Source: Rickettsiales bacterium (GTDB lineage Bacteria; Pseudomonadota; Alphaproteobacteria; Rickettsiales; JAIXRX01). From it: a stretch of 64,000 bases of DNA. Made by a program: the position numbers and the translations under genes. The stretch is taken from positions 168,778 to 232,777 of the forward strand of contig CBDFGH010000006.1 of the NCBI GenBank assembly GCA_965247145.1. The letters run 5' to 3'. Below the pieces are notes generated by a model that searched no databases, was not told the DNA's origin, and saw nothing but the letters and a program-made list of their open reading frames with translations. Position 1 is the first letter of the stretch, and every line of letters starts with the position of its first letter. Shown here one piece after another: positions 14,089 to 58,185 of the stretch.

Positions 14089-14100
14089 GCCGCGCCTCCC

Positions 14101-15573: not shown

Positions 15574-15574
15574 A

Positions 15575-19119: not shown

Positions 19120-19122
19120 GAA

Positions 19123-19455
19123 CTATCCGTGCAATTGATTGATGTCTTCGACCGCGATGGTGCCGCGGTTGCGATAGAAAGTAACGAGAATGGCGAGCCC
19201 GATGGCGGCTTCGGCGGCGGCGACCGTCAGCACGAAGACGGTGAAGACCTGCCCCGTGAGATCATGCAGCATTGTGGAGAAGGCCACGAAATTGATGTTC
19301 ACCGAAAGCAGCATCAATTCCACCGAAAGCAGGATGGTGATGATGCTCTTGCGGTTGATGAACATGCCGCAGACGCCGATGACGAAGAGAATACCCGACA
19401 AGATCAGGTAATGCAGAATGCCGACGGAGCCGAAGAAGGGTTGCATGGAAAGCAT
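19123..19455 (-). CDS. nuoK: NADH-quinone oxidoreductase subunit K
   Basis: ~100-aa 3-TM protein with [13 protein letters not shown]...[20 protein letters not shown]. Confidence 0.95.
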
Positions 19456-19456
19456 G

Positions 19457-20080
19457 TTATGCCCCTTCCCCGGATTGCACTTGGACTATGCGCATCGCAT
19501 CCGACTTTTTGCGGTTGATCTGGCGCGAAATATTCTGGCGGCGCACATCCTTGCCATGGCGCAGGGTGAGCACGATGGCCCCGACCATGGCGACCAGCAA
19601 GATCAGCCCGGCCACCTGGAAGGGCAGCAGGAAATGGGTGTAGAGCACCTGGCCCACGGCCTGGGTATTGGTGGTAGTGGCGGCGGAAACCGTGGTGGTC
19701 GCGGCGCTCATCGCGCCTTCGTAGCCGGGCAGCTGATTCGAGGCGCGGAAGATCAGCACCAATTCGCCCAACAGAACCACCCCGATGATCGCGCCGATGC
19801 CCGCATAGCGCAAAAAGCCCTGGCGCAGTTCCGCGACATTGATATTCAGCATCATGACGACGAAGATGAACAATACCGCCACCGCGCCGACATAAACGAT
19901 CACTAAAGTCATGGCGATATATTCCGCCCCGAGCAGCAGCATGAGGGCGGCGGCATTGAAGAAACCGAGAATGAGGAAGAACACGCTGAGCACGGGGTTC
20001 CGCGCGGTGATGACGAGCAGACCCGACACCACGGTGAGCGCGGCGAAGAAGTAGAAGAGGAGTGTGGTGATATCCAGCAC
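19457..20080 (-). CDS. nuoJ: NADH-quinone oxidoreductase subunit J
   Basis: 207 aa starting [30 protein letters not shown], as is typical of NuoJ. Confidence 0.93.
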
Positions 20081-39685: not shown

Positions 39686-39921
39686 CATTTCGCTCCGTAT
39701 CGCGCCTGCTGGCGTTCACATGAGCCTGACGTCTTCTGCGAGCTCAAGGCTGGGTTTTTGGCGTTTCGCTCCGCGAAGGTCTGCTGGCCTTCACATGAGC
39801 CTGACGGCTGCGCCGAGCTCAAGGCTGGGTTTTTGGCGTTTCGCTCCGCGAAGGTCTGCTGACCTTCACATGAGCCTGACGGCTGCGCCGAGCTCAAGGC
39901 TGGTTCGGCCTGCTGGCCTCA
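39686..39921. repeat. 75-bp tandem repeat array (about 3 copies plus partial ends)
   Basis: The motif cacatgagcctgacgg recurs at 39717, 39792 and 39867 (period 75). Units 1-2 differ at a few positions, unit 3 carries an internal deletion, and a degenerate half-unit precedes unit 1. Confidence 0.9.
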
Positions 39922-42975: not shown

Positions 42976-43818
42976 ATGATTTATCGCCTGCCCATAAAAA
43001 ACATTTTCGCCAATAATATCCTCGTCGCCCTGTCCGCCTGCCTCCTGCTCGCCGCCTGCGCCGAGCCGGTCACCCGCACGCCTGGCATCTCCAGCCAGGA
43101 AATCGCCGCCGAAGCCAAAGTGCACGAAGATGCAGTCGCCGCCGCCAAGCGTCAGTCCGGCGGCAGCAAAACCAGCATCGACCGTAGCATCGCACAAAAT
43201 GGCCTGAATGCGGTTGCCGCGAAACTCCTTCCCGCCGCCGCGGCCTATTGCCAGCAATTTGATGGCCAATCCCCCTGCCCCTACACCTACCAACTCGACA
43301 AGGACGACGCGCCGCTGAACGCCTATGCGGACGGTTCGCAGATCGTGGTGGCGCCCGCCATGATCGCCTTTACCCAAAGCCCGGATGAACTCGGCGTGGT
43401 GCTCGGCCACGAACTCGCCCACAACATCCTCAAGCACCCCGCCAAAGCCCAGCAAAACGGCATGCTGGGGGGGCTGGCCGGAACCGCACTCGGCGCGGCC
43501 GCGCAGGCCTACGGCTACAATCTCGGCGATCTCGGCGGCATGGGGCAGCAACTGGCAGTCGGCCATTACAGCCAGGATTTCGAGCGGGACGCGGATTATC
43601 TCGGCATCTACATCACCTACGCCGCCGGTTACAACGTCGATGTCGCCCCCACTTTCTGGCAGCGCATGAGTGTGGCGGACCCGGACGGCATCTACAGCGC
43701 TTCCTCCCACCCCACCAACCCCGAGCGTGCCGTGCTTCTGCGCAAGGCCATTGCCGAAATCCGCGCCAAAGTCGCCGCCGGTCAGCCGCTGGTGCCCGAA
43801 TTGCGGAAGCAGAAATGA
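42976..43818 (+). CDS. M48-family zinc metallopeptidase, lipoprotein
   Basis: Lipobox LLLAA-C, HELAHN zinc motif, downstream FERDADYLG and SSHPTNPER; 280 aa from ATG 42976. Confidence 0.85.
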   Translation: MIYRLPIKNIFANNILVALSACLLLAACAEPVTRTPGISSQEIAAEAKVHEDAVAAAKRQSGGSKTSIDRSIAQNGLNAVAAKLLPAAAAYCQQFDGQSPCPYTYQLDKDDAPLNAYADGSQIVVAPAMIAFTQSPDELGVVLGHELAHNILKHPAKAQQNGMLGGLAGTALGAAAQAYGYNLGDLGGMGQQLAVGHYSQDFERDADYLGIYITYAAGYNVDVAPTFWQRMSVADPDGIYSASSHPTNPERAVLLRKAIAEIRAKVAAGQPLVPELRKQK

Positions 43819-44774
43819 TGCGCGCGCTGAATCTGCTCCCTTTCCTCGTGCTTGCCCTGGCTGCCTGCCAGCCTTCGCCCTTCGCCACGGAACGAACCGA
43901 CCGCGCGGAGCAATCCTATGTCGAGCCGCTAATCCGGGTTACGGATGCCGAAGGCAAGGAGATGATGCGTCCCGCCAAGGCAGACGACGCCAGCCAGGGT
44001 CTCTACCGCATCCAAAACGTCCGCACCCTGACGTTCCGAACACTGAGCGAATATGGCAACGATATGAAGCGCGACGTGTATCTATTGCAGGAAAAACAGA
44101 ATTTCCTCGCTGACGACGAGCGAGATGTCGCGTTCGGCACATCGAACATTGCGGTGACATTGTACCATCAATCTTCAACCAGCGCGACAGAGAGCGAACG
44201 CGTTTGGAGCCATCATTTCGCGGCGGATCGCAGCGATCTCATCGCTAATACGGGGATGCCGCTTGAAATCTATCGCCTGACCGTTTTCGGCTGCTGCGGC
44301 ACCCACGACAATTACCGCTATCTAGACGCGATGACCGGCAGGTTGCTGGGCGGGGGAGACAGTCCCCTGACGCCGGTCGATCTGATGGAACCGTCGGGTG
44401 CGACGATCCGGCGTTACATTTCCGTGGAATCCGATTACGCTGAGATAGAATATGCCCGCCCTTCCTGCCGGGCAGCCCTGGTCAGTCTGGCCGACGAGAC
44501 ACACATCTTGGCAACCGTGGCCTTGACCGCGCCCCAGACGATTCAATGCGCGAAAGAAGCATCCAGCTTCAAGGATTTCGGCAGCCGTAAGCTGGTGCAT
44601 TCCAGTGCCAAACGCGACCGCGCGACGGTGGTTCTTCCACTGGCCGAAGGCGGGCAAGGCCCCCGTCTGCCGTTCGATGCCAAAGGATTCCTGATGGATA
44701 AAATCAAACTTCCCGCCGGCTGGAAGGCCGCCCCTGCCCGACTGGATTGGCCGGGCGAGCATGCCGCTAAATAA
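43815..44774 (+). CDS. hypothetical lipoprotein (319 aa)
   Basis: ATGA overlap with the M48 stop. Signal/lipobox MMRALNLLPFLVLALAA-C. No family recognised. Confidence 0.65.
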   Translation: MMRALNLLPFLVLALAACQPSPFATERTDRAEQSYVEPLIRVTDAEGKEMMRPAKADDASQGLYRIQNVRTLTFRTLSEYGNDMKRDVYLLQEKQNFLADDERDVAFGTSNIAVTLYHQSSTSATESERVWSHHFAADRSDLIANTGMPLEIYRLTVFGCCGTHDNYRYLDAMTGRLLGGGDSPLTPVDLMEPSGATIRRYISVESDYAEIEYARPSCRAALVSLADETHILATVALTAPQTIQCAKEASSFKDFGSRKLVHSSAKRDRATVVLPLAEGGQGPRLPFDAKGFLMDKIKLPAGWKAAPARLDWPGEHAAK

Positions 44775-46534: not shown

Positions 46535-47404
46535 TTAAGCCGCTTGCTTCTTCAGCACCCCGACCAATTTCTCCGTCGCCAGCTTCGTATCCAGCTTTTC
46601 AGCCGCGGCGAGTTCGCCGACCATGCGGTTGAAGGCGGATTCGAAGATGATGCGTTCGCTGTAGGAGCGTTCGGATTGATCGACGTTTTTGTAGAGATCG
46701 CGCACCACTTCGGCCACGCTGAGCAGGCAGCCGCTGTTGATCTTCGCTTCATACTCTTGAGCACGGCGGCTCCACATACCCCGGCCGGCTTTGGCTTTGC
46801 CTTTCAGGGTCTTCAGAGCTTTTTCGATCTTTTCCGAACCGCTGATGCAGCGCAGACCGGCGGCTTCGGCGCGGTGCACGGGCACGCGCAGGGTCATTTT
46901 ATCGCGTTCGAAGTTGATCACGAACACTTTCAGCGACACTTCGCCGAAGGTCTGAGTCTCTTCGCCGATGATGTTGCCGACGCCGTGGGTGGGATAGACC
47001 ACGAAGCTGCCGACCTTGAAATCGCCCTTCGCGGCGGCAGGGGCTTTGACGATGGCGATGGGGGCAGTCACGACTTGCTTCGACATAATGGTTTTCGTTT
47101 CCATGATTTTGGTGGGAATGACGGTCTTGGCGATGGCCCTGGCAGGCGCTGCTTTGGCTGCAACCGCCTTCGGTACGGCCTTGATAACCGCTTTGGGCGC
47201 AGTTTTCATCGGGGCGGATTTGGCAGGAAGCGCTTTCTGGGCAGCTTTGCCTTTTACAGAAACCGGCTTCGTTTTGGCCGCAGGTTGTTTGGAAACGGCT
47301 GTTTTCGAAGATTTCGATTTGGCAGCAACCGGCTTGATTGGGGATGCCTTGATTGCGGATGCCTTGGTTGCGGGGGAAACGGACAATTTTTTAGCAGTCG
47401 CCAT
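46535..47404 (-). CDS. carD: CarD/CdnL-family transcription factor with ~125-aa Lys/Ala/Pro-rich N-terminal extension
   Basis: Residues ~128-289 carry FKVGSFVVYPTHGVGNI...MTLRVPV...MWSRRAQEYEAKINSG...VVRDL (CarD_TRCF-like). Residues 1-125 are KAxP-type low complexity. Internal Mets at 101/107 would give a standard-length protein. Confidence 0.8.
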   Translation of the reverse strand: MATAKKLSVSPATKASAIKASPIKPVAAKSKSSKTAVSKQPAAKTKPVSVKGKAAQKALPAKSAPMKTAPKAVIKAVPKAVAAKAAPARAIAKTVIPTKIMETKTIMSKQVVTAPIAIVKAPAAAKGDFKVGSFVVYPTHGVGNIIGEETQTFGEVSLKVFVINFERDKMTLRVPVHRAEAAGLRCISGSEKIEKALKTLKGKAKAGRGMWSRRAQEYEAKINSGCLLSVAEVVRDLYKNVDQSERSYSERIIFESAFNRMVGELAAAEKLDTKLATEKLVGVLKKQAA

Positions 47405-47977: not shown

Positions 47978-49648
47978 TCATTCGGAAATCTTGGGACCGT
48001 TCTCCGAGATACCTTGCTGCACATTCGAAACGACACCGCCGATTTTATCATTGAGTATGTCGTTCGGGGATTCGCCGGGCGTGCTGCGCACTTCTCCGGC
48101 GGCGCTTTTCAATGTTTCCATCATCGATTCGCCTTGTTTGGCGCCTTCCCCCATGGCTCCCGTGGCCATCTTCATCATGGCGCTGCCCGCGCCGCTGACG
48201 CTGCCTGCGGCACGCTGTGCCATACCCATCGGGTCGATGCCGTTGCGCTGGGCCATGGCGGCAAGTTCCTGGCCGGAAGTGGTGATGCTGACATTCCCAC
48301 CCGAAAGTTCGCTGGCGATCTGCTGGACATAACTGCTGTAGCGCCAGGACAGCGAGGAAAGCAGCACGAACATAAGCACGTCCACCATGTGAATCTGCAT
48401 GTTCGCCTTCTGCCAAAGGTCGGTGGCGATGGGAATGGGACTGTTGCCGCCACGGTTGCTGACATAGCCGAGCACGTCGTTTGCCGTAGCGTGATGAGCA
48501 AATGAATCCGAAACCGGAAAGAACCACCAAATCTGCGCGATTTCCATATCCCAAAACGGTCCATAGCACACATTGATTTCAAGAATTGGTTTGAGCACAC
48601 CCGCAATCATCGTCATGAAGAATCCGAGGAAGGCGAAGACGAAGACGGGTTGAAGGGCGAAGCTGAGGCAAAGGTTGAACCAGCCGTCGAACAATCGCCG
48701 GGTCTGGTCGAACAACAGACAGACGATGAAGATCGGGGAAATGGCGAAGAGCACGAATAGACCGATCAGGGCCTTGACGTAGGTAGCCAGCGCCCCGAGC
48801 GCCGCCAGCAGGAAAAAGAAGGTGCCCTGAATCAGGAAGAGCATCAGCACGAATCCGCTCAAACCCGCGAACATCATGCTGAGAATGACCATGATAAAGC
48901 GGATATCCATGACCATCTGCAACGGCACGATGAGAAAGTTCAGCGGGGCGTTGGTGAGCATGGTGTTTGGCAGCTGGTGCAGCCCCACATTCAAACCTCT
49001 CGGCAATGCATTCAGACTACCGACGGTGGCGGTGTAATAGGCGGTAATCAATTCGTTCATGCCGCCGATGAAGAAGCTCTGGATGATGATGCTCACCCCG
49101 CCCCCCACGATCAGGTAATACATGATCGCGATCTTCAATATACGGATGAAGGCTTCGTACCATGTGATGTCGACCAGATTGAACAGCACCATGATGCCGA
49201 ATACGACGAGATACAGCATCACCGTCGCATTCATCGCAGCAACAAAACCGGTATCGTGGGTCAGGGTTCGGAAGAGGTCTTTCCACCGCGGGCTGGAAGC
49301 GCTGGAACCGATGAACATGGTATTGATCTTGTCAAACACCGCGTCGAGCGTCGCGGCGACTTGCATGAGATTGCGCGAACCTTCGGGCGGGCCGGAGACG
49401 TCTGTCATCGAAACATATTGCGCGCATTCCGGCGGTGGGCTCGCGCCAACGCATTCTGGGTGAAAATCTCTTGACTGCAATGTCGTTGCAGGAGCCGCTT
49501 TTCCAAACGAACAAAACGGACCCAACCGATCGGTGGCGGAAACCTGGGCATGCGCCGTGTGCGGCGCAATCGCCACCAACCACATCAGAAGGACATACAG
49601 GCAAATAGGTGAATATCTGCGGAAGGGATAAGAGAGCATAAGCATCAT
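47978..49648 (-). CDS. virB6: VirB6/TrbL-family T4SS inner-membrane protein, paralog 3
   Basis: 556 aa with signal peptide ...APHTAHA and a polytopic core bearing FDQTRRLFDGWFNLCLSFALQP, shared with the two upstream paralogs. Hydrophilic Gly/Met-rich tail. ATGA overlap with the upstream stop. Confidence 0.8.
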   Translation of the reverse strand: MMLMLSYPFRRYSPICLYVLLMWLVAIAPHTAHAQVSATDRLGPFCSFGKAAPATTLQSRDFHPECVGASPPPECAQYVSMTDVSGPPEGSRNLMQVAATLDAVFDKINTMFIGSSASSPRWKDLFRTLTHDTGFVAAMNATVMLYLVVFGIMVLFNLVDITWYEAFIRILKIAIMYYLIVGGGVSIIIQSFFIGGMNELITAYYTATVGSLNALPRGLNVGLHQLPNTMLTNAPLNFLIVPLQMVMDIRFIMVILSMMFAGLSGFVLMLFLIQGTFFFLLAALGALATYVKALIGLFVLFAISPIFIVCLLFDQTRRLFDGWFNLCLSFALQPVFVFAFLGFFMTMIAGVLKPILEINVCYGPFWDMEIAQIWWFFPVSDSFAHHATANDVLGYVSNRGGNSPIPIATDLWQKANMQIHMVDVLMFVLLSSLSWRYSSYVQQIASELSGGNVSITTSGQELAAMAQRNGIDPMGMAQRAAGSVSGAGSAMMKMATGAMGEGAKQGESMMETLKSAAGEVRSTPGESPNDILNDKIGGVVSNVQQGISENGPKISE

Positions 49649-51714
49649 TTTTTAACTTCCGGTTTGGCGGCGCTTTGAATGCGGCTGAGAATGGCGCCGA
49701 GATCGGTATTTTCCACAATGGCTTCCCGCCCGCTGGCCACCAGGGCTCCGCCCCCACGTCGCACGAAATTGCTGACATTGTCGACGGGATTGAAAGTGGA
49801 GCCGCCGCGCTTTTCCGCGCGTGTCCAGCGCGCTTCGGTACTACCGAGAAAGCTTTCGATACGGTCCGCGAACGGCACCCCGCTGTCGCCGCTCACCGGC
49901 GCGCTGCGCCCGCCGCGCGAAAGCAGGCTTGCCATGCCGCCGGTAATGGCAATGCCGCCACTGCCGACAATGGAACGCGCGATCTGCGGCACGGCCTGAT
50001 TGAGCGAGACGAAAAGAAATATCATCAGAAAGGCGCTGAATACCGAGCCACTGAGCTTCATCAGAAACCATTCCTGAAAATTGGCGTCCACCCTTCCAGG
50101 AATCAACGTAATGTAATGCGGATTCGGCCCACCGCTGGCGACCCATTTATGCGTCTGCGGATCGAAGGCGCCGCCCACCATGCCCGTAGCACGAAACGCC
50201 TGCAATATCTGCGGGGTCAACCCGTCGTTTGCCGGAGTGGCGGGAATCTCGCCCTGTACCTTTCTAAGGAACCGATCGTAGGTGCCGTTGATGCGCAGAT
50301 CGATGATCGGCATCCAGATCGGATCGAGCGAGACACTGCTCAAGCTTTGCAACGAGCGGATCATCGTGCCGACATCGCTGCTGGCGGTGAAGGCATCCAA
50401 ATATTTTTTGGCCGTTGCGAGTCCGCCCGCCACATCCCGTGTTATTTGTTTGCCTACGATATCTGCGATATTGGATAGCTCTCTCGAGCTCAAAATATCG
50501 AATAACACCACGCCCTCGTCTCGTACCATGTTGCGCAACACGATGCGGCGCATTTCCGATTGGACTTTCAAATCAGCATTCCTGATGCGATCAAAGCCCA
50601 GCACCTCGTAGATGCTGTAGACGACCCCAGCATTCCTTGTCCAATTGCTCGGTGGAGATCCTGTGCTGCCGGCGATGAAGTAGCTCGCGCCGAAAATACT
50701 CACCGACATGAAAATGACGAGAATAAACGGCTGAAAGATGATGCCGATATAGATGAACAGCCATTTGGTGAAATAGCTCATGGTGCGCCGGAACATGAGC
50801 GTGGGTATGACCAGCGGCACGAAAATGAGAATGACCGCGATCGCCAGATAGGCATGCATGATGTAGAAAATACAGCGCATGACATAAAGTATGATGGTAA
50901 ACATCAGCATGATCGTGCCGAAGAGAATGGCGATGCCCAGCGGCCCGCTCATCGCCGTGGCCATGATGAGCGACACGATGCCCGTCCAGAACGCCACACC
51001 CGCCACCATGCCGAACAGCATGCCGAGAATGCAATCCAGCGCGTTCCATAAGCGCACTTCCTGCTTGACGTCCTGCATGGTAACCGATGTTTGCCCGTTG
51101 GGGCTTGTGGTGGTGATAGGGATATGCAGCTCGATGCTACTGCGGTTGAGCCCACCAGCAGGCCCGGGTAGAGTGGGATCAAGTGAATTGTTGCAGCGTA
51201 TGAACAATTGCGCGGTGCCTTCCTGCGCCATATTGCCAAACAGGGTCGCGCCCCAATCCATCAACTCGTCCTGCACCGCCACGGCAATGCGCCCGATATT
51301 GAGGCTGCTCGCCCCGGTGGAAAGGCTCGTCAGCATCACCATCACGAAAGCGGCTTTGATCAACAGCAGCAACCCCTCGCCCTTCGGCGAGCGCACGCCG
51401 CCCATAGTCATCCGCACCCCGAACAACACGATGGAGAGAAAAATCACCGCGCCACCGATGGGCAGCATGAAGCGTGCGATGGGTGCCACCACGGTGGCTG
51501 CCGCCGTATAGGTCATCACCCGCATACAAGCCACCGCACGTGCACTGAGCGTGCCGGCCAGCTCGGGCACTCTCATGCATTCGGACTGCGAAATGTCTGC
51601 CAGATCGATAACGTAGCCGAGTGGGTCTAAGGCCAAAGCGGGGGTTGCCACACCGATCATGCCGCAGCAGAAAACCGCGATCATGAGGAAAAAGAGGATG
51701 CGGGGCTGCTGCAT
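49645..51714 (-). CDS. virB6: VirB6/TrbL-family T4SS inner-membrane protein, paralog 2
   Basis: 689 aa with signal peptide ...GVATPALA and core motif FRRTMSYFTKWLFIYIGIIFQP, plus a large hydrophilic C-terminal region. Starts 2 nt after the upstream stop. Confidence 0.8.
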   Translation of the reverse strand: MQQPRILFFLMIAVFCCGMIGVATPALALDPLGYVIDLADISQSECMRVPELAGTLSARAVACMRVMTYTAAATVVAPIARFMLPIGGAVIFLSIVLFGVRMTMGGVRSPKGEGLLLLIKAAFVMVMLTSLSTGASSLNIGRIAVAVQDELMDWGATLFGNMAQEGTAQLFIRCNNSLDPTLPGPAGGLNRSSIELHIPITTTSPNGQTSVTMQDVKQEVRLWNALDCILGMLFGMVAGVAFWTGIVSLIMATAMSGPLGIAILFGTIMLMFTIILYVMRCIFYIMHAYLAIAVILIFVPLVIPTLMFRRTMSYFTKWLFIYIGIIFQPFILVIFMSVSIFGASYFIAGSTGSPPSNWTRNAGVVYSIYEVLGFDRIRNADLKVQSEMRRIVLRNMVRDEGVVLFDILSSRELSNIADIVGKQITRDVAGGLATAKKYLDAFTASSDVGTMIRSLQSLSSVSLDPIWMPIIDLRINGTYDRFLRKVQGEIPATPANDGLTPQILQAFRATGMVGGAFDPQTHKWVASGGPNPHYITLIPGRVDANFQEWFLMKLSGSVFSAFLMIFLFVSLNQAVPQIARSIVGSGGIAITGGMASLLSRGGRSAPVSGDSGVPFADRIESFLGSTEARWTRAEKRGGSTFNPVDNVSNFVRRGGGALVASGREAIVENTDLGAILSRIQSAAKPEVKK

Positions 51715-51716
51715 AC

Positions 51717-53432
51717 CTACCCCTTCCCGCCGAATTTGCTGAAAACATCGGCCAATCCCTGCTGGGCTTGCCCCATCGAACCTTCCGAGCCGCGTAGGCC
51801 ACCCTCGATGCCGCGATTCAGGCTGCTGACCCCGGAAAGTGCGGTTTTCCCAAGATCACCGCCCATGCGATTGACCTTGTTGATGTCCCCGCTATCCACC
51901 GCTGCTGCCGCCAGCAGGTTCACGAATTCCGGCAGCTGACGTAGAAAATGATAGAGTACGAAGAGGATGATGAAGGCGGTGAACATCGCCAGAAAGGGCC
52001 TTGCCATGGCCTGCGCGGTCCGCACGTCGTAGGATTGGGTGGAAATGCTCGGCCAACTGTAGCCGTTGTTTTTCTGAATCAGCGCCTGGCTTGCACTACG
52101 GAACTGGGTTAGCAGGTAATCCAACACCTCGCCGGAAATAGGCAGGCTCTTGAGTTCAGATTCGGTCGAGGCACTGGCAAGGGTGGTGAGTTCGACGATG
52201 AAACGGTTGATCGAACGCTCCCCGATGCGGTTGAACGCCTTCTGGATTTGCGGCACCGTGCATTCGGACTCGCCATAGGCCTTGACGTTGGTATGCGACA
52301 ATTCATTGGCCGCTTGGTTCAACGCCGCCACTACCGAATATTTCTTCAGGCAGACCACATTTTCGAACACGGTGACGAACATCATCAAAAACAGGCACAG
52401 TAATATGGGCTGCATGGTGAAACCCACCAACATGCCGAACCAGCGCGTGAAATAATCACGGGTTTTCTGAAAGAAAATGCATGCCCAGGCCAGCGGTGCG
52501 ATCATCATCAACAGTATGATCGATATATGTGCGAGGATCATGATGCTGATCGAAATCTCCATCACCACGCCCAACGCATAGATCATGCCCCCGAATGCCG
52601 CAGCCGCGCCTTTGGCCAGATAACCGGAGAAGGCGTTTTTCATCATGACCCCGATCGGGGAGTTCGCGGAATTCTGTCCGACTTCGATGATGGATTGGGC
52701 GGCGCAATCGAGCTTGGCCCAGGGCACCAGGAAAATGTAATTGGGCCCGATGCTGGCCCCGGTGTAGGCGCTGCACAGAGAGCTGGGAATTTTCAGCGCG
52801 ATGGTGCCCGACCAATTGTTCAGCGTTTCGATCAGCGACTCGTAAAGCATGGGTATGGCCGCCACTGCCGCCAGCAAAATACCGATCTTCATGAAAATGA
52901 CGAAGATGCCGGAGAGAAATTCATTATGCCTTCCCAGCGCTACTTTCACACCCAGCATCACCAGCGCCAATAAAGAAACGGCGAGGATGATGTCGGTGAA
53001 AAGATTCGAGGTGGCGGTAATGGCAATCCGGCCGAAATAAATGATGGCCCCCGGCATATTGGCTGCGCCGTCGCCCGGCTGAGTTCCCAATAGACAACCG
53101 ACGATGCGCAGGGTGAGATAGAAATTTTCGCGGCCTGTTCCTGTGCCGTTGCCGGGTACATTCTGCCATTGGGCATGATTGACCGTTCTGAATTTTTTGA
53201 TGCCTTCGCTTTCGCCGCAGAAACGCGTTGATCCTATGCCCGACCACATGTTCGACAGACTGGTGAAGCTGGCATTCGGCCGCTGCTGTGCTTCCACCGA
53301 GAGCTTGTTGGGGAAAAAAGCGGAGGAAAGGATGAAGCAGAGAAACGTTCCGAAAAGAACGGCAAGGATGTGCCGCACCACCAACGGCCGTGCCGATCGC
53401 GCCAAACCGGCCGAAACGCTTCCCGCGCTCAT
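51717..53432 (-). CDS. virB6: VirB6/TrbL-family T4SS inner-membrane protein, paralog 1
   Basis: Core motif FQKTRDYFTRWFGMLVGFTMQP. ATG 53432 forms an ATGA overlap with the virB4 stop; the ORF-track start 53468 would overlap virB4 by 40 nt. Confidence 0.8.
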   Translation of the reverse strand: MSAGSVSAGLARSARPLVVRHILAVLFGTFLCFILSSAFFPNKLSVEAQQRPNASFTSLSNMWSGIGSTRFCGESEGIKKFRTVNHAQWQNVPGNGTGTGRENFYLTLRIVGCLLGTQPGDGAANMPGAIIYFGRIAITATSNLFTDIILAVSLLALVMLGVKVALGRHNEFLSGIFVIFMKIGILLAAVAAIPMLYESLIETLNNWSGTIALKIPSSLCSAYTGASIGPNYIFLVPWAKLDCAAQSIIEVGQNSANSPIGVMMKNAFSGYLAKGAAAAFGGMIYALGVVMEISISIMILAHISIILLMMIAPLAWACIFFQKTRDYFTRWFGMLVGFTMQPILLCLFLMMFVTVFENVVCLKKYSVVAALNQAANELSHTNVKAYGESECTVPQIQKAFNRIGERSINRFIVELTTLASASTESELKSLPISGEVLDYLLTQFRSASQALIQKNNGYSWPSISTQSYDVRTAQAMARPFLAMFTAFIILFVLYHFLRQLPEFVNLLAAAAVDSGDINKVNRMGGDLGKTALSGVSSLNRGIEGGLRGSEGSMGQAQQGLADVFSKFGGKG

Positions 53433-55828
53433 AGACGCCGCGCGCGTTCGAAGAAGACGGGCAGCCACTGGTCGGGATCGTCGCCCACTTTGGCGCGGAT
53501 GTCGTCGAGCAGGCGCACGGTATCGGCGCGCGCGGAAAGCACATTCACCGCATCCGTCATCCCGCTTAAGTCGATGCGGGCCACCACCATGTCTTTGTTC
53601 TGCTTCACCAGGAAGAAGCGGGAGCCGGGGTCGGTGCTTTTGATCAGGTTGAATTCCCGTTCGCTCAGCATGAAGGCGCTTCGATACACGCTGGTGGCTT
53701 TCGGGTTGGGCAGAAAAATCTGCGTGGCGGTCTGCTGGATCAGCGTGTCCGAGATCGCGCTGCTCGCCGCATCTTCGACCGATTGGGTGGCGAAGATCAC
53801 GAAAGCGTTCAGTTTCCGCAAGGTTTTCAGCCAGTCCTTGATCTTGCTCGCGAAGACAGAGTTATCGATCAGCGCCCAGGCTTCGTCCAGCACCAGCATG
53901 GTGGGCGTGCCGTCGAGCGAGAGGTTAATCTTGTGGAAGAGATACAGCAGCACCGGCGCCAGCGTGACTTTGTTGGAAAGCACCGGGCCCATTTCGAAAC
54001 CGAAATTGGCATGGGTGCTGAAATCCAGCGAGTCGAAGGGATTGTCAAACAATTTGGCGTATTGCCCGTCCGAATGCCACATGCGCAGGCGGCCCGCCAG
54101 CGAGCCCGGCCCCTCTAAGCCCAGGAAGGGCGCGATGTTGCGCAGCATGCGGTCTTTGCGGGCGAGCTTGAAATTGCCGTTCACCGCTTCGGTGATGAGC
54201 GCCATGTCTTCCGCCGTCAGCGGCTCGCCATACACCGTCACCAGCGTGCGCATCCATTCGCTGATGAAATTGCGATTCTCGTTGGTATCCGGCAGTTGCA
54301 GCGGGTTGAAGTTGCAGCGCTCGCCGGGTTCGATGATGTTGTAGGAGCCGTGGATGGCGCGGATGAAGATTTCGGCGCCGCGATCTTTGTCGAAGAAGAA
54401 CAGGCGGCAATTGAATTTCTGCGCCTGCGCGCAGAGGAAGTTCATCAGCACCGTTTTGCCCGCACCCGTGGGCCCGATGATGGTGGTGTGGCCCACGTCG
54501 CGTGCGTGGAAATTGAAATAATAGGGCGTGCCGGAAGTCGTATCCAGCACGCTCACCGCATCCCCCCAATGGTTGCCCGCAATGCGACCGGTGGGGTAAT
54601 TGTGCAGGCTCGCCATGCCCGCCACATTCAGGCTGTGGATTTTGGATTTGCGCGCCACATAGTCGAAATTCGCCGGCAGCTGCGACCAGAAGGCCTGCTC
54701 CAAGATCATCTTCTCCCGCGTCGGGTTGAAGCCGATATTGACCATTTCGGCCACTGCCATCGAAAGCGAGGATTCCATCGATTTTAGATCGTCTTCGATC
54801 ACCATCACCGTCATCTGGTGCTGCCCGAAGGCGACCGCCCCACCGGTGGCGAGATCGAGCGCATCCGAGATTTCGATGACCTGGCTGATCGCTTTATCCT
54901 GGCTCGCCATCTTGCGGCGCTGCTCGGTCTGCATGCTCTGGATCGAGGTGGCGCGGTTGATGAAGATGTAGGAATGGGTCACGATGAGTTCGCAGGGCAA
55001 TTGCAGAAACCCGTCCAGCATCCCGGCGGCGGTGGCGCTGGGATATTCCCGCACCGAAAGCATCGCGCCGTAGCGCGTTTTGTTCAGGCCGCGAAATTCG
55101 ATGGCACGGCTGCCGAAATAGATGCGCTGATAGGGCAGATAATGCGAGATGTCGGTCATCGGCACATGCATCTGCTTGCCGTCGCCGCCATTGATGAGCT
55201 TGCTCAGAAATTCCAATGGCTCGGAAACGGGGCCGTTTTCGGTGTCGATCGTGGTCAGCAATTCCGGGCTGTAATCGCGCAGGCTGGCCATCACGCGGTT
55301 CACCGCATCCGCCAGATCCTTGAAGGATTCCTGCATGCCCATGGCACGCTGCTGCTCGTTCACCCCGGCTGCGAGTTTGTTGAAATAATATTCCAGCTTG
55401 GCGAAACCGGCCTTGTCCGCCTTGCGCACCACGGTGATGTAGAGTTCGTTGATGAAGGCCTGTTTCGCGGTGCGCTTGGCCTTCCATTGCTCGTTGAGCA
55501 TATTGGCGAAACCGCGGCGGAATTTGCCCTTGGGGAAGCCCGGCTTGCGGCGGCGGATGGTGTGGAACCACAATGCGAAGTCGCCGTCCGACATGCTTTT
55601 CAGCAGCGAATTGCGCACCAGTTTCTTCATGTCCACGTCTTCGTCGTCCGCCGTTTCGAAAGCGAAACCGCTGACGCGGATGGTCTGCATCATCTCCCCG
55701 TTCTTGGTGATGATGGTCTCGCGGTCCCAATGATAATGGTAGGGAATGAACTCGGCGGCGGCCACCTCATGGGCGCTCTGCCACGATTGTGCCGTCTTGC
55801 GGATGGAGAATTGCTTGTAACTGCGCAT
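53429..55828 (-). CDS. virB4: type IV secretion system ATPase VirB4
   Basis: 799 aa with N-terminal FIPYHYHWDRETIITKNGEMMQTIRVSGFAFE, Walker A IIGPTGAGKT and Walker B MLVLDEAW. Confidence 0.93.
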   Translation of the reverse strand: MRSYKQFSIRKTAQSWQSAHEVAAAEFIPYHYHWDRETIITKNGEMMQTIRVSGFAFETADDEDVDMKKLVRNSLLKSMSDGDFALWFHTIRRRKPGFPKGKFRRGFANMLNEQWKAKRTAKQAFINELYITVVRKADKAGFAKLEYYFNKLAAGVNEQQRAMGMQESFKDLADAVNRVMASLRDYSPELLTTIDTENGPVSEPLEFLSKLINGGDGKQMHVPMTDISHYLPYQRIYFGSRAIEFRGLNKTRYGAMLSVREYPSATAAGMLDGFLQLPCELIVTHSYIFINRATSIQSMQTEQRRKMASQDKAISQVIEISDALDLATGGAVAFGQHQMTVMVIEDDLKSMESSLSMAVAEMVNIGFNPTREKMILEQAFWSQLPANFDYVARKSKIHSLNVAGMASLHNYPTGRIAGNHWGDAVSVLDTTSGTPYYFNFHARDVGHTTIIGPTGAGKTVLMNFLCAQAQKFNCRLFFFDKDRGAEIFIRAIHGSYNIIEPGERCNFNPLQLPDTNENRNFISEWMRTLVTVYGEPLTAEDMALITEAVNGNFKLARKDRMLRNIAPFLGLEGPGSLAGRLRMWHSDGQYAKLFDNPFDSLDFSTHANFGFEMGPVLSNKVTLAPVLLYLFHKINLSLDGTPTMLVLDEAWALIDNSVFASKIKDWLKTLRKLNAFVIFATQSVEDAASSAISDTLIQQTATQIFLPNPKATSVYRSAFMLSEREFNLIKSTDPGSRFFLVKQNKDMVVARIDLSGMTDAVNVLSARADTVRLLDDIRAKVGDDPDQWLPVFFERARRL

Positions 55829-55874: not shown

Positions 55875-56171
55875 CTAGAACAGATCGTAGGAATTCGTGC
55901 CGCCATGATAGCGGCGATTGACGCAACGCATGCCCTTGCTCATTCGCAGCATGACCAGTTCCAGCGCGCGCGGTTCTTTGCGACATACGAGAAAAGCGAA
56001 AGCGTGCAGGATGGGGAATACGACGCCGAGATAAATGAAATTCTTGGTATTGATGAAGGTCAACAGACAGATCATGCTGTTGAAGATGAAGAACATGTAG
56101 CTGACGCCACCAACCATGGTCGGACGGGTGAGGCCTTGAAAGAGCGGATCGACTTGCAAACGACCGGACAT
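55875..56171 (-). CDS. virB3: type IV secretion system protein VirB3
   Basis: 98 aa with DPLFQGLTRPTMVGGVSY followed by a hydrophobic hairpin. Immediately upstream of virB4. Confidence 0.88.
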   Translation of the reverse strand: MSGRLQVDPLFQGLTRPTMVGGVSYMFFIFNSMICLLTFINTKNFIYLGVVFPILHAFAFLVCRKEPRALELVMLRMSKGMRCVNRRYHGGTNSYDLF

Positions 56172-56180
56172 GATATTTCC

Positions 56181-56435
56181 TTACAGTTTCTGACTTTGAT
56201 GATCGGGCGCGGAAAGGCGCTTCGCATCGTGCCGCGTAGCAAAAAAACCAATCATATGCCCGATGGGGAAAAGGACGGACAGAAAGATAAAATTTCTAAA
56301 GAACAAGAATAGGGCTAGGCACAACAGCGAATTGATTAAAAAATAACGGTAACGCACACCGCCGACAAGCACCGGCCCAAGCACTGATTCATTGCCTGAT
56401 GCGCGCTTTGCTGTTTCGATTTTACCACCAGCCAT
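56181..56435 (-). CDS. VirB3-like paralog (84 aa)
   Basis: Ungapped hand alignment to the adjacent VirB3 core gives 24 identities over 55 residues (P.VGGV.Y..F..NS..C....F....NFI.L.V.FPI.H...F...R). Lies 9 nt upstream of virB3. Confidence 0.7.
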   Translation of the reverse strand: MAGGKIETAKRASGNESVLGPVLVGGVRYRYFLINSLLCLALFLFFRNFIFLSVLFPIGHMIGFFATRHDAKRLSAPDHQSQKL

Positions 56436-56916
56436 TGTCGTCCTTCTTGTCGGATTTCACCACTGTGCCATCCTTATTATAGAAGTTATTAATAAATTGT
56501 TGCGTCATGGCGGCGGCTTGCTGTGCTTGGGCAAGCTTCAGTGCGGCGGCTGCAGGCGTCCCATTGGCACCATTCAGCATTTTCCGCACTTCTTCGCGTT
56601 TCTTTTCCCGCTGTTTGATTGTTTTGTTGGCTTTGTCGATGGTGGCTTTGGTCTGAGAGGAAATCATCGCCTGCACCAGCTTCTTGGCTTTGCCCTGCAT
56701 GACGGGTTCGCCCGATTCGTCCACCACGTCAAGGCGCTTGGAAAGCATCTTCGCCTGAATCTCCGCCGTTTTGCGCGCGGTCATCAGCGTGTAGCGGTCG
56801 TCGGCGTTCATCTTCAGCAGCTTTTGTTTGTCGGCCGCGCTGCCGCCGGAATTTTTGTTCAGAATGCTGCCGCCGCCGCTTTTTCCGCCACTGCCGCCAC
56901 CCATCGAATACCGCAT
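56422..56916 (-). CDS. hypothetical Gly-rich / Lys-rich coiled-coil protein, first gene of the T4SS operon (orf164)
   Basis: Start chosen at ATG 56916 (AGGAG 6 nt upstream); the ORF-track start 57045 collides with the divergent gene. GGGSGGKSGGGS N-terminus, K/Q/A-rich middle, C-terminus ...KKDDNGWW*. Overlaps the virB3-like ORF by 14 nt. Confidence 0.55.
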   Translation of the reverse strand: MRYSMGGGSGGKSGGGSILNKNSGGSAADKQKLLKMNADDRYTLMTARKTAEIQAKMLSKRLDVVDESGEPVMQGKAKKLVQAMISSQTKATIDKANKTIKQREKKREEVRKMLNGANGTPAAAALKLAQAQQAAAMTQQFINNFYNKDGTVVKSDKKDDNGWW

Positions 56917-57043
56917 ATGCATCTCCTGCTTGGCCGTTGCCCGCCGCCGTTTTGCCAAGACAAAGCGGGCCGTTTCCATTAGTTTCATTCTACTGCAAAC
57001 CATGCCGAACCGCGTATGAAGGTTTTGTGACAGGAGCTGTGCC

Positions 57044-57631
57044 ATGCAACAGGAAAACCCGGAAAATCCACCGCTTCGTTCGTTCGGTTATCAACGGCTC
57101 GGGCTGTTGATCGCGGCATCCATGGTGGCGCTGCTGGCGATTCTCTTCGCGCCGCGCCCCATCATGCGCGACCGCCGCGACCCTGCACCCATCGCCCGCG
57201 CGCAGGAAGGCTTGGAAAAGCACACTTTCACGCTCACCCGCCAGGATGGGCGTGTGTTGCCTTTCACCCTCGAAATCGCAGCCACCGAGCGGCAGCAGGA
57301 AATCGGGCTGATGTTTCGCACCCAGTTGGCGGAAAACGAAGGCATGCTTTTCCCCTACCCGGATGACGCGCCGCGCATGATGTGGATGAAAAATACGCTG
57401 ATTCCGCTCGATATGCTCTTTTTCGATGGGGAAGGACGCCTCGTCTCGGTCATCACCCGCGCACAGCCGGAATCGGAGACCATTTTGGAATCGGTCGCTC
57501 CCGCGCGTCAGGTGCTGGAATTGCGGGCCGGTACGGTCGAAGCCTACGGCCTCGCGGTGGGTGATCGTTTGCGGGAAACCAGTGCAGCCCCCGGCAGCGT
57601 GCCCGCCGAAGCGCAGCCGAAGACGCACTAG
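57044..57631 (+). CDS. DUF192 domain protein
   Basis: CAGGAG SD. N-terminal TM, then GMLFPYPDDAPRMMWMKNTLIPLDMLFFDGEGRLVSV (DUF192 pattern). Confidence 0.8.
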   Translation: MQQENPENPPLRSFGYQRLGLLIAASMVALLAILFAPRPIMRDRRDPAPIARAQEGLEKHTFTLTRQDGRVLPFTLEIAATERQQEIGLMFRTQLAENEGMLFPYPDDAPRMMWMKNTLIPLDMLFFDGEGRLVSVITRAQPESETILESVAPARQVLELRAGTVEAYGLAVGDRLRETSAAPGSVPAEAQPKTH

Positions 57632-57633
57632 CC

Positions 57634-58185
57634 ATGTCCTTCCGCCGGTTCTTCTTACTGCTGCTCGCCCTGCCCTGCCTTGCGGCGGCCACCCCGTTTC
57701 TTTTCCGCCAAACCGAAATCACCATCCTCGCCCTCGGGCCGAAGCCCGGCAGCGTCGCCGCGCCTGCGGGGGCCGAAGGGAAAAACCCGCCCGCGCAGCC
57801 CATTGCGCCCACGCCGCGGCAGTTTCAGTTGAAAGCGCAGATGCGCCCGGCCTCGGCCCTGCTGCAGAAAGATCTCTTCAGCGTCGATCCTTTCGTGCAT
57901 ACCAGCGCGCATCTCTTCGTCTTCGACACGCCGAGTCTGACCGGGTTTCAAGCGCCCGCCATCCAGAAGCCGGTGGATATTCTGGCCATCAACCAGAACG
58001 GCATCATTCTGGAGATTATTCCCCAGGCCGTGCCCGCCCATCTCGACCCCAGCCAATATTCCGTGGAAGAACCCGTGCGCGCCCTGCTTTTCCTGCCGCG
58101 CGGCAGCGTGGACGCCAATGGATTAAGACCGGGGGACCGCGTGCTCAACGCCATCTTTGCGCGTCCACCGGAAAAAAGGAACTAA
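57634..58185 (+). CDS. DUF192-like paralog (degenerate)
   Basis: Signal peptide MSFRRFFLLLLALPCLAAA. HLFVFDTP...KPVDILAINQNGIILEI... parallels the DUF192 core of the upstream gene. Starts 2 nt after the upstream stop. Confidence 0.6.
   Translation: MSFRRFFLLLLALPCLAAATPFLFRQTEITILALGPKPGSVAAPAGAEGKNPPAQPIAPTPRQFQLKAQMRPASALLQKDLFSVDPFVHTSAHLFVFDTPSLTGFQAPAIQKPVDILAINQNGIILEIIPQAVPAHLDPSQYSVEEPVRALLFLPRGSVDANGLRPGDRVLNAIFARPPEKRN

Follow-up and report, generated by a model that had tools for sequence, protein, structure and literature searches.

Enlarged VirB6 proteins in several copies are the least understood peculiarity of the rvh T4SS, and they are hard to study in obligate intracellular pathogens. 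The stretch of DNA analyzed here, a 64-kb window, contains three adjacent minus-strand genes of 571, 689, and 556 aa downstream of virB3-virB4, at coordinates that stand as first described. The question they raise is whether all three are genuine VirB6 proteins, and what one secretion system does with three of them.

Operon layout and family membership

The trio forms the distal part of an operon with the order hypothetical, virB3-like, virB3, virB4, virB6-1, virB6-2, virB6-3.

56422..57045, minus strand: lineage-specific hypothetical, first ORF of the operon, Gly/Ser-rich and helical, 207 aa as ORF
56181..56435, minus strand: truncated, fast-evolving VirB3 paralog, 84 aa; Pfam VirB3 29 bits (cut-off 23.9)
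55875..56171, minus strand: VirB3, 98 aa; Pfam VirB3 85 bits, NCBIfam PRK13899 114.6 bits (cut-off 74)
53429..55828, minus strand: VirB4 ATPase, 799 aa, Rickettsia-type (RvhB4-I-like); NCBIfam PRK13898 1200 bits (cut-off 1050)
51717..53432, minus strand: VirB6 paralog 1, orthogroup 1, 571 aa; Pfam TrbL 53.6 bits
49645..51714, minus strand: VirB6 paralog 2, orthogroup 2, 689 aa; Pfam TrbL 21.8 bits, under the cut-off
47978..49648, minus strand: VirB6 paralog 3, orthogroup 3, 556 aa; Pfam TrbL 54.7 bits

Paralog 1 is counted from its ATG and has 583 aa if an upstream GTG is the start; the public gene call for paralog 3 (P0004, 476 aa) is too short. The first ORF, ~161 aa in its orthologs, has no family match in Pfam or NCBIfam, and its orthologs are found only in the related loci L001 and L002 (72-81% identity), with a weak match in L003. 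The truncated VirB3 paralog is confined to the window and those two loci, L001 and L002 (29-36% identity). The window VirB4 is 97% identical to that of L001 and 90% to that of L002. The virB4 stop overlaps the paralog 1 start as ATGA, the paralog 1 stop is separated by a 2-nt spacer from the paralog 2 start, which is preceded by a GGGAAGGGG stretch, and the paralog 2 stop again overlaps the paralog 3 start as ATGA. By these junctions the trio is translationally coupled, which points to co-expression. The first overlap leaves no room for a virB5 between virB4 and virB6-1, and no VirB5-like match was found among the scanned ORFs of the window.

Paralogs 1 and 3 score above the gathering cut-off of Pfam PF04610 (TrbL/VirB6; 25.9 bits), and paralog 2 as a single sequence scores below it. 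The paralog 2 orthogroup profile matches R388 TrwI/VirB6 (E = 2e-5), and hhalign joins it to the paralog 3 orthogroup profile with 99.4% probability (E = 9e-22) over 266 columns. A profile of 132 clade sequences matches TrwI/VirB6 (7o3v_F) with E = 3e-16, spanning the conserved block treated below, the last TM helix, the motif after it, and the Gly-rich tail. Hydropathy gives at least 6 hydrophobic segments per protein, an N-terminal one and at least 5-6 further TM-like ones, a topology that may mislead because only two TrwI helices are membrane-inserted in R388 (PMC9259494). For paralog 3, AlphaFold2 with an alignment of 6 sequences gave an unusable model (mean pLDDT 40.8, pTM 0.22). With Pfam matches for paralogs 1 and 3 and orthogroup-profile matches for paralog 2, the original assignment to VirB6/TrbL is upheld, and each ORF reads as a complete polytopic protein of this family.

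Adjacency is the sole point in favor of reading the three ORFs as fragments of one disrupted gene or as pseudogenes, and the probability of that is negligible. Each ORF has its own signal peptide, full TM core, block, last TM, and tail, each has full-length orthologs, and omega is ~0.3, which together refute this reading; the preliminary description had likewise called fragments unsupported.

Shared block and domain architecture

The three proteins had been described as sharing one sequence block. We find the pattern F..T...F..W(9)QP in all three, and it holds the invariant Trp of the VirB6 family, a residue reported to be essential (PMC2653234).

52407..52472, minus strand: paralog 1 conserved block with the invariant Trp, FQKTRDYFTRWFGMLVGFTMQP
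50728..50793, minus strand: paralog 2 conserved block, FRRTMSYFTKWLFIYIGIIFQP
48647..48712, minus strand: paralog 3 conserved block, FDQTRRLFDGWFNLCLSFALQP

When the window is translated in all six frames, the strict motif F..T[RM].[YL]F..W[FL]x8QP turns up once per ORF and nowhere else, 3 occurrences where amino-acid composition predicts 4e-7, so the sharing is confirmed. The block aligns to 'LIWQPTHRFFDQW' of TrwI. Its residues F313, T316, F320, W323, and P334 reach 90% conservation or more among the 132 clade sequences and present in all 3 paralogs; together with the signal-peptide -1 Ala, C66, G151, G265, and P305, they make up the nearly invariant positions of that set. One distant position-2 ortholog (in L014) lacks the Trp, and therefore some copies may have drifted from the canonical role. 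Pairwise BLASTP between the paralogs finds similarity only around the block (27% over 123 aa, 33% over 60 aa, 24% over 49 aa), in keeping with the high divergence claimed for the remainder, but that claim went too far in that a W..DC loop motif and the last TM, followed in each paralog by a P-x-IA...GG juxtamembrane motif, are also common to the three.

Each paralog consists, in order, of a Sec-type signal peptide, a Cys-containing N-terminal segment, two TM helices, a loop, the hydrophobic core with the block, a hydrophilic insert, the last TM with its juxtamembrane motif, and a short Gly-rich tail.

53289..53432, minus strand: paralog 1 predicted signal peptide, aa 1-48, cleaved between SVEA and QQ (hydropathy; site kept in orthologs)
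51631..51714, minus strand: paralog 2 predicted signal peptide, aa 1-28, cleaved between PALA and LD (hydropathy; clade columns)
49547..49648, minus strand: paralog 3 predicted signal peptide, aa 1-34, cleaved between TAHA and QV (hydropathy; clade columns)
52014..52343, minus strand: paralog 1 hydrophilic insert, aa 364-473, bounded by the TM that follows the block and by the last TM
50071..50664, minus strand: paralog 2 hydrophilic insert, aa 351-548
48401..48574, minus strand: paralog 3 insert with a conserved CYGP motif, aa 359-416
51720..51857, minus strand: paralog 1 Gly-rich C-terminal tail, aa 526-571, with a nearly invariant LPEFVNLLAAAAVDSGDINKV just before it
49648..49899, minus strand: paralog 2 G/S/R-rich tail, aa 606-689
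47981..48268, minus strand: paralog 3 G/S/M-rich tail, aa 461-556

Over all three orthogroups, the cleavage columns have Ala at -1 in 100/108 sequences and mostly Ala, Ser, or Val at -3 (92/108), and the A-x-A signal peptides so predicted would export the N-termini of all 3 paralogs. Signal peptides had been noted for paralogs 2 and 3 and are found there; to these is added paralog 1, whose h-region and site between VEA and QQ are conserved in its orthologs.

The signal peptide plus N-domain occupies 72-135 aa and the inserts 58-198 aa. What follows the last TM and its motif, the tail, comes to 46, 84, and 96 aa in paralogs 1, 2, and 3, or 8-17% of the protein. Cysteines of the soluble segments lie in the N-domain, loop, and insert, with none in the tails. 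Disorder-promoting residues reach their highest share in the tails (0.61-0.67), which are G/S-rich, with Met in addition in paralog 3. The composition first given for them was right and the description of them as long was not; a Gly-rich tail is canonical and present in TrwI too. Nor do the tails account for the enlargement, since the extra length is mainly in the Cys-containing N-terminal domain and the internal inserts. The paralog 1 insert is its most variable segment (35% identity to L002, omega 0.85), and maps to clade-profile positions that have no TrwI counterpart. The paralog 2 insert makes up most of the ~200 aa by which this protein exceeds its orthogroup median (484.5 aa at position 2), and distant orthologs have little that corresponds to segments 353-366, 390-405, 416-439, and 475-544. 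At 556-689 aa against 342 aa for TrwI, and with sizeable hydrophilic flanks, the three proteins fall under the label 'extended VirB6-like'. The preliminary description took such extension as an rvh peculiarity, and here it does occur in an rvh context, but it is not exclusive to rvh.

Orthogroups, selection, and genomic setting

The 58 related loci are all from MAGs titled Rickettsiales, Alphaproteobacteria, Pseudomonadota, or (n = 1) Azospirillaceae. In ~41 of the ~41 with enough flank, virB4 is followed by at least 3 VirB6 copies, 4 loci carrying four, and across ~40 loci the genes fall into three orthogroups of fixed order. The third-position proteins separate perfectly as their own cluster, and the top-5 BLASTP matches go to the same position in 173/180 cases for position 1, 153/180 for position 2, and 180/180 for position 3. 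Orthogroup 3 is the most conserved, its members scoring 60-146 bits in every locus; paralog 1 shares 57% identity with its ortholog P0002 and 52% with P0003, and its orthology is also positional. The three positional orthogroups strongly support an ancient divergence of the paralogs, as first proposed, and recent lineage-specific duplication is contradicted by the third-position cluster and the same-position matches. The three paralogs may have been sub-functionalized, as was also first suggested.

Non-synonymous change in the VirB6 genes runs ~5-13x faster than in VirB4, with omega ~0.3 overall (0.08-0.28 in the core) against 0.05-0.11 for VirB4. The paralog 3 core is 88% identical to that of L002 with omega 0.08. 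All 3 paralogs are under purifying selection, and there was no sign of positive selection in the VirB6 genes.

The far greater conservation of paralog 3 raises the idea that there is one functional VirB6, probably the third, and that the others are regulators, decoys, or exposed or cleaved proteins. Paralog 2 being under the Pfam cut-off and the Trp-less L014 copy at position 2 would fit with this, as would the autoregulation of secretion proposed for duplicated rvh parts (PMC11077975) and the surface-exposed extensions of Anaplasma VirB6-3 and VirB6-4 (PMC7648143). However, all three window paralogs keep their signal peptide along with the Trp block and last-TM motif, purifying selection acts on every one of them, and the tails are short and non-repetitive, unlike the Anaplasma extensions, so that we consider a single functional copy quite unlikely.

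As to the system these genes belong to, VirB4 scores 1200.4 bits against the Rickettsia-type equivalog and only 445.6 against the Agrobacterium-type PRK13853 (cut-off 957), and VirB3 also passes its Rickettsia-type equivalog. Together with the tandem multicopy VirB6 after virB3-virB4, which is among the rvh hallmarks (PMC11077975, PMC2653234), this bears out the rvh context first assigned. Duplicated VirB4, VirB8, and VirB9 and the lack of a VirB5 analog are further rvh traits; within the 64-kb window no virB8-11, virD4, or second virB4 was found. On either side lie housekeeping genes (nuo, leuA, RNase J, folP, sdhCDAB, carD, DUF192 x2, acpS, pdxJ, relA), and the operon lies among them as an rvh islet does, rvh genes being scattered among chromosomal housekeeping genes with the virB8-D4 cluster at a separate site. 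GC content is that of the surroundings, in a host genome that is high-GC (~58%) and non-reduced.

In view of the TrbL/VirB6 name of the Pfam family, we considered whether the trio could be TrbL genes left by a plasmid or belonging to an integrated conjugative element, in place of an rvh effector or killing system. TrbL of conjugative systems can also exceed 500 aa and carry Gly-rich tails. We regard this origin as highly improbable, given that the 64 kb contain no gene for a relaxase, a coupling protein, or an integrase and no further tra/trb gene, that the flanks are core housekeeping genes, that VirB4, VirB3, and GC content are as stated above, and that the triple array is vertically conserved in a clade whose VirB4 proteins are 55-73% identical.

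The nearest GTDB representative has a VirB4 only 73% identical to that of the window. The rvh T4SS is present in basal free-living-like Rickettsiales (PMC11077975, PMC9352585), and the window belongs to an environmental, non-reduced relative of Rickettsia, most likely at home among the basal environmental Rickettsiales (Mitibacteraceae/Athabascaceae). The three VirB6 genes are a real and well-conserved feature, yet an expected one for such a bacterium; current understanding is unchanged because the rvh literature predicts such a pattern. What the window and ~40 related loci do offer is a simpler form of the array, with three paralogs strictly conserved in environmental relatives whose genomes are not reduced. 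Its architecture is cleanly delimited, and it makes a compact comparative set for asking which rvh VirB6 parts are ancestral, with smaller, repeat-free proteins that would ease expression for structural and interaction work.

Role of the trio and comparison with known systems

Our favored reading, which we hold to be probable, is that the three genes code for VirB6 subunits that diverged long ago, are not redundant with one another, and belong to the inner-membrane/stalk platform of a chromosomal rvh T4SS. In R388, TrwI/VirB6 is a pentamer at the stalk base contacting VirB3, VirB4, and VirB5 (PMC9259494), and by homology the trio would be expected to form a stalk base contacting VirB3 and VirB4. 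By analogy with TrwI and Ehrlichia, the three proteins may co-assemble into a heteromeric platform, in which periplasmic structure would come from the inserts, the loops, and the exported N-domains, virB5 being missing from its usual place, and the rapidly evolving hydrophilic parts could tune substrate or partner contacts.

A different assembly, which we think unlikely, would have each paralog form its own homo-oligomeric platform, swapped into the same core machine according to substrate, partner, or condition. Each could be a competent VirB6 because all three keep the invariant core residues; the hydrophilic parts differ greatly between paralogs and evolve fast, and the only solved precedent, TrwI, is a homopentamer (PMC9259494). 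The ATGA coupling, though, implies simultaneous and roughly stoichiometric synthesis, every locus with enough flank keeps all 3 orthogroups, and Ehrlichia VirB6 paralogs interact, at least as cited in PMC7648143.

The heteromeric platform can be extended to a bolder proposal, for which we would claim only a small chance: the triplet, with its fixed order, may be the ancestral rvh state and the source of the 4- and 5-copy arrays of Anaplasmataceae and Rickettsiaceae, forming an obligate hetero-oligomeric stalk base whose disulfide-bonded exported N-domains and inserts replace the VirB5 tip. If true, this would explain both the lack of VirB5 in rvh and the multiplication of VirB6.

Among known systems, Rickettsia RvhB6a-e (islet A, virB3-virB4a-virB6a-e; Gillespie et al. 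2009, PMC2653234) likewise has a tandem VirB6 array directly after virB3-virB4, paralog conservation limited to the surroundings of the TM/cytoplasmic block that holds the invariant Trp, enlargement over the ~300-aa archetype, and an islet among housekeeping genes (PMC2653234). It differs in having five copies to the three here, of 674-1154 aa to 556-689 aa, and long flanking extensions where the extra length here is mostly N-terminal and internal; the high-GC, non-reduced host is a further difference. The Anaplasma/Ehrlichia VirB6-1 to VirB6-4 also go with virB3-virB4, there co-transcribed, are of the same extended subtype, and have N-terminal signal peptides predicted for some paralogs (PMC7648143), whereas all three have A-x-A signal peptides here, with no lipoboxes, no sodB in the operon, and none of the huge C-terminal repeat extensions that reach up to 9,935 aa in Anaplasma. 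The rvh of basal environmental Rickettsiales (Schon et al. 2022, PMC9352585; PMC11077975) shares duplicated components, higher GC, and full biosynthetic and respiratory sets (leuA, trpE-like, nuo, and sdh in the window), to which the window sublineage adds the truncated virB3 duplicate and the novel leading ORF. The core is also homologous to A. tumefaciens VirB6 and R388 TrwI (PDB 7o3v; PMC9259494), corresponding to TrwI residues 5-244, and in TrwI the homology takes in the last TM, its P-x-IAS-LAGG motif, and the Gly-rich tail as well. TrwI, in contrast, is single-copy at 342 aa, without signal peptide, N-domain, or the ~60-200 aa insert before the last TM, and works with a VirB5 pentamer, for which the window has no gene at the corresponding place.

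Layout of the operon and identity of the system

In the window, a hypothetical ORF, a virB3-like ORF, virB3, virB4, and three adjacent virB6 genes (paralogs 1, 2, and 3) form a single compact string on the minus strand, and when the ORFs were re-read, the coordinates and lengths first proposed for the three paralogs proved exact.

ORFs of the minus-strand string
56422-57045, minus: hypothetical ORF, 207 aa (about 161 aa in orthologs), the operon's leading ORF
56181-56435, minus: VirB3-like ORF, 84 aa, Pfam VirB3 at 29 bits
55875-56171, minus: virB3, above the cut-off of NCBIfam PRK13899
53429-55828, minus: virB4, above the cut-off of NCBIfam PRK13898
51717-53432, minus: VirB6 paralog 1, 571 aa, polytopic, well above the Pfam TrbL/VirB6 cut-off
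49645-51714, minus: VirB6 paralog 2, 689 aa, polytopic, below the Pfam cut-off and placed via profiles
47978-49648, minus: VirB6 paralog 3, 556 aa, polytopic, well above the Pfam TrbL/VirB6 cut-off

Read directly at the junctions, the stop of virB4 and the start of paralog 1 overlap as ATGA, the stop of paralog 2 and the start of paralog 3 do likewise, and paralog 2 starts 2 nt past the paralog 1 stop, preceded by a GGGAAGGGG stretch. From these overlaps and the 2-nt spacing, we infer that the three virB6 genes are translationally coupled in one operon. Downstream of paralog 3, there is a gap of about 570 nt, and then carD (46535-47404). The exact window proteins are deposited in NCBI/ENA from a 234,684-bp contig, where the gene call for paralog 3 is a 476-aa protein (P0004) that begins at an internal Met and leaves out both the conserved signal peptide and the N-domain with its cysteines. 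The 556-aa reading appears preferable, supported by the ATGA overlap and by the signal peptide and Cys-containing N-segment that are conserved in orthologs (P0005, 565 aa).

The product of the leading ORF is Gly/Ser-rich at its N-terminus, helical in its body, and ends in WW; it is without a signal peptide and matches no family in Pfam or NCBIfam. Its orthologs are found only in the three closest loci, at 72-81% identity, and the last 14 nt of the ORF are shared with the start of the VirB3-like ORF. The latter encodes a C-terminally truncated VirB3 paralog and lies just upstream of the true virB3. Only the window and the related loci L001 and L002 have it, the remaining 56 loci being without it, and identity among the three is 29-36% versus 89-93% for true VirB3. 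It is an extra subunit that evolves fast, or else a duplicate in decay.

VirB4 and VirB3 pass Rickettsia-type equivalog cut-offs (PRK13898 and PRK13899), and VirB4 scores far under the cut-off of the Agrobacterium-type model. There is no space for a virB5 between virB4 and the first virB6, and no virB8-11 or virD4 lies within the 64-kb window. Around the operon lie core chromosomal genes: nuo operon, leuA, RNase J, folP, a chorismate-binding enzyme, sdhCDAB, carD, two DUF192 genes, acpS, pdxJ, and relA/spoT. So far as one window reveals, the locus matches islet A (the virB3-virB4-virB6 array) of the type IV secretion system called rvh, for Rickettsiales vir homolog (PMC2653234), and the hallmarks given in PMC11077975. 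A TrbL of a mobile element was considered and rejected, as the 64 kb hold no relaxase, coupling protein, integrase, or other tra/trb gene, the flanks are housekeeping genes, and VirB4 and VirB3 are of the Rickettsia type. The preliminary description rested on a real observation, and its interpretation was essentially right; the feature is a tandem multicopy VirB6 array of rvh.

Four other features of the window deserve mention. Upstream of sdhC there is a 75-bp tandem repeat (39706-39903; 2.6 copies, 95% matches), and sdhCDAB is broken, which is unusual, by an M48-family peptidase gene and a gene for a 319-aa hypothetical protein between sdhA and sdhB (42982-44774, plus). A DUF4145 ORF (32678-33373, minus; GC3 0.35) in a patch of about 51% GC within a region of about 58-60% GC adjoins tRNA-Asp/tRNA-Val (33487-33698), and is probably a small foreign insertion. 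The strong positive AT skew (0.2-0.3) at 14000-20000 coincides with minus-strand nuoL/M/N-type membrane subunit genes, and reflects the composition of hydrophobic proteins; it is no feature in its own right.

The VirB6 triplet in related genomes

The block F-x-x-T-(R/M)-x-(Y/L)-F-x-x-W-(F/L)-x8-Q-P, described as common to the three ORFs, is indeed so: a six-frame translation of the window has precisely three instances of the strict motif, one per ORF, against a composition-based expectation of 4e-7. BLASTP between the paralogs finds similarity only around the block, with 24-33% identity over 49-123 residues. By a profile of 132 clade sequences, the block aligns to 'LIWQPTHRFFDQW' of TrwI, the VirB6 of plasmid R388. 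As a motif it is not new, being the already known conserved VirB6 TM/cytoplasmic region, which holds an essential invariant Trp (PMC2653234, PMC7648143). Paralog 2 alone reaches 21.8 bits versus the Pfam TrbL/VirB6 cut-off of 25.9, while the profile of its orthogroup matches TrwI with E = 2e-5 and aligns to the paralog 3 orthogroup over 266 columns with a profile-profile probability of 99.4%.

Word-indexed homolog searches gave only 3 proteins for paralog 1, 5 for paralog 3, and 6 for the 132-sequence alignment, none from named classical Rickettsiales. An exhaustive profile search gave 3105 relatives, 119 at E<=1e-30, and the ten that were checked were metagenome proteins or labelled just 'VirB6-like' or 'hypothetical'. 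The whole arrangement is common to the window, L001, and L002, and a VirB4 scan of species-representative genomes produced 58 further loci. These are without exception metagenome-assembled genomes, under the titles Rickettsiales, Alphaproteobacteria, or Pseudomonadota (in one case Azospirillaceae), with GC of 38-60% and a VirB4 mostly 55-73% identical to that of the window, less for a few partial matches. With a GC of about 58% and genes for biosynthesis and respiration, the window fits the basal Rickettsiales of Schon et al., which are non-reduced, have a higher GC, and carry rvh (PMC9352585).

In each locus that reaches far enough downstream, virB4 is followed by three VirB6-like genes, or in four loci by four, the extra copy being of the third type. 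In L014, an apparent exception, the middle copy is present but divergent (13868-15199, plus); it is without the otherwise invariant Trp (FHYTSERITKKA), and had escaped single-sequence searches. Clustering on 320 well-occupied columns sets all third-position proteins apart at the first split, and of the top five BLASTP matches in other loci, 173/180 for position 1, 153/180 for position 2, and 180/180 for position 3 keep the position of the query. Such position-true clustering and matching indicates three fixed-order orthogroups older than the clade, to which the window proteins belong as 1, 2, and 3. That bears out the earlier suggestion that the array is not a recent duplication, and refutes fragments of one disrupted gene. 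A pseudogene reading was likewise discarded, since each ORF has full-length orthologs and an omega (dN/dS) of about 0.3. Flanking synteny is kept only in the three closest loci, and is therefore uninformative on deep vertical inheritance.

Median lengths at positions 1, 2, and 3 are 566, 484.5, and 478.5 aa, and the window proteins are longer; the roughly 200 surplus residues of paralog 2 lie mainly in the loop and the insert that precedes the last TM helix. Much longer proteins occur in L040 (12414-21486; 1522, 774, and 723 aa) and L041 (12369-19065; 697, 777, and 662 aa), the two loci in which full-length VirB4 diverges most (55% identity), and these proteins resemble the extended proteins of classical Rickettsiales.

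Protein architecture and evolutionary rate

A single plan is common to the three paralogs: signal peptide, N-segment, two TM helices, loop, core, insert, last TM helix with its motif, and tail. Signal peptides had been noted on paralogs 2 and 3, which stands, though they are not limited to those two. Predicted sites are VEA|QQ in paralog 1, ALA|LD in paralog 2, and AHA|QV in paralog 3, and in all three orthogroups, the -1 residue is Ala (100/108 clade sequences) and -3 mostly Ala/Ser/Val (92/108). The N-terminal hydrophilic segment of 44-98 aa has conserved cysteines and no counterpart in TrwI. It is followed by two TM helices, which a short basic loop connects, by a further loop, which in orthogroups 1 and 2 has a W..(L/I)DC motif, and by the hydrophobic core that carries the Trp block. 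Between the core and the last TM helix there is a hydrophilic insert of 58-198 aa, for which TrwI is without an equivalent. The juxtamembrane motif that follows has the clade consensus P-x-IA...AG, where TrwI has LPSIASGLAGG, and this segment with the last TM helix is the best-conserved part of paralog 1.

The tails are Gly/Ser-rich (with Met in paralog 3) and without Cys. The hydrophilic tails first described are thus real, but at 46-96 aa they are not long, and the enlargement of the proteins is mostly N-terminal and internal. Nor are they specific to rvh: TrwI has a Gly/Ala-rich tail of the same kind, which makes the tail a family trait and not an rvh novelty. The suggested check for disorder did not call any, the charge-hydropathy test leaving the tails unclassed as disordered, and some flexibility is hinted at only by their composition. 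Soluble-segment cysteines occur only in the N-domain, loop, and insert, a distribution suggesting that these are periplasmic and the tail cytoplasmic. Only two helices of R388 TrwI are truly in the membrane (PMC9259494), so a hydropathy-derived topology needs caution. The AlphaFold2 model of paralog 3 had a pLDDT of 40.8 and was unusable.

Relative to L001 and L002, VirB4 has 97% and 90% amino-acid identity and VirB3 has 93% and 89%, and the VirB6 paralogs have 51-60%. Nei-Gojobori estimates of dN are 0.35-0.40 in the VirB6 genes and 0.03-0.07 in VirB4, and those of omega about 0.30 and 0.05-0.11. Cores and last-TM motifs are constrained (omega 0.08-0.28), and N-domains, loops, inserts, and tails are loosely so, up to 0.85 in the paralog 1 insert. 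Omega was below 1 in all genes and segments, giving no sign of positive selection, but with dS at about 0.5-1.4, near saturation, and undefined for some segments. Recombination or cassette exchange was weighed for the drop in L001 from 97% (VirB4) to 57% (VirB6-1), and judged unnecessary: other quickly evolving neighbors, such as DUF192b at 57%, drop as far, and dS is similar, so no replacement event is needed. The tandem DUF192 genes (57044-57631, plus; 57634-58185, plus) are transcribed divergently from the rvh operon; between close relatives, the nearer one is as divergent as VirB6 (57% identity), and the other is 81-82% identical. High VirB6 variability within rvh has already been described (PMC2653234, PMC11077975).

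How the three proteins may work

The operon encodes three complete, co-translated VirB6 proteins of distinct ancient types, under purifying selection, in an rvh-type islet, and all three types are co-retained in every locus with enough downstream sequence. In R388, VirB6 is the pentameric base of the stalk, touching VirB3 and VirB4 and carrying VirB5 (PMC9259494). VirB6 paralogs are co-transcribed in Anaplasma, and in Ehrlichia they are reported to interact (PMC7648143). By analogy with these systems, we favor co-assembly, in which the three paralogs would join in a single heteromeric platform, and their exported extra domains would supply structure in the periplasm of a system whose usual virB5 site has no such gene. 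Each paralog could instead form its own homo-oligomeric module, which is possible, but translational coupling and universal co-retention favor co-assembly. The same two observations speak against one working VirB6 accompanied by specialised copies, also possible, which draws some support from the much greater conservation of paralog 3 and from the missing Trp of a single distant middle copy, that of L014.

In such organisms, rvh may serve bacterial killing, protist defence, or host interaction (PMC9352585). Arrays of this type are already known from rvh; the one described here is a simpler, three-copy, moderately extended form, and that form is kept across a large environmental clade.
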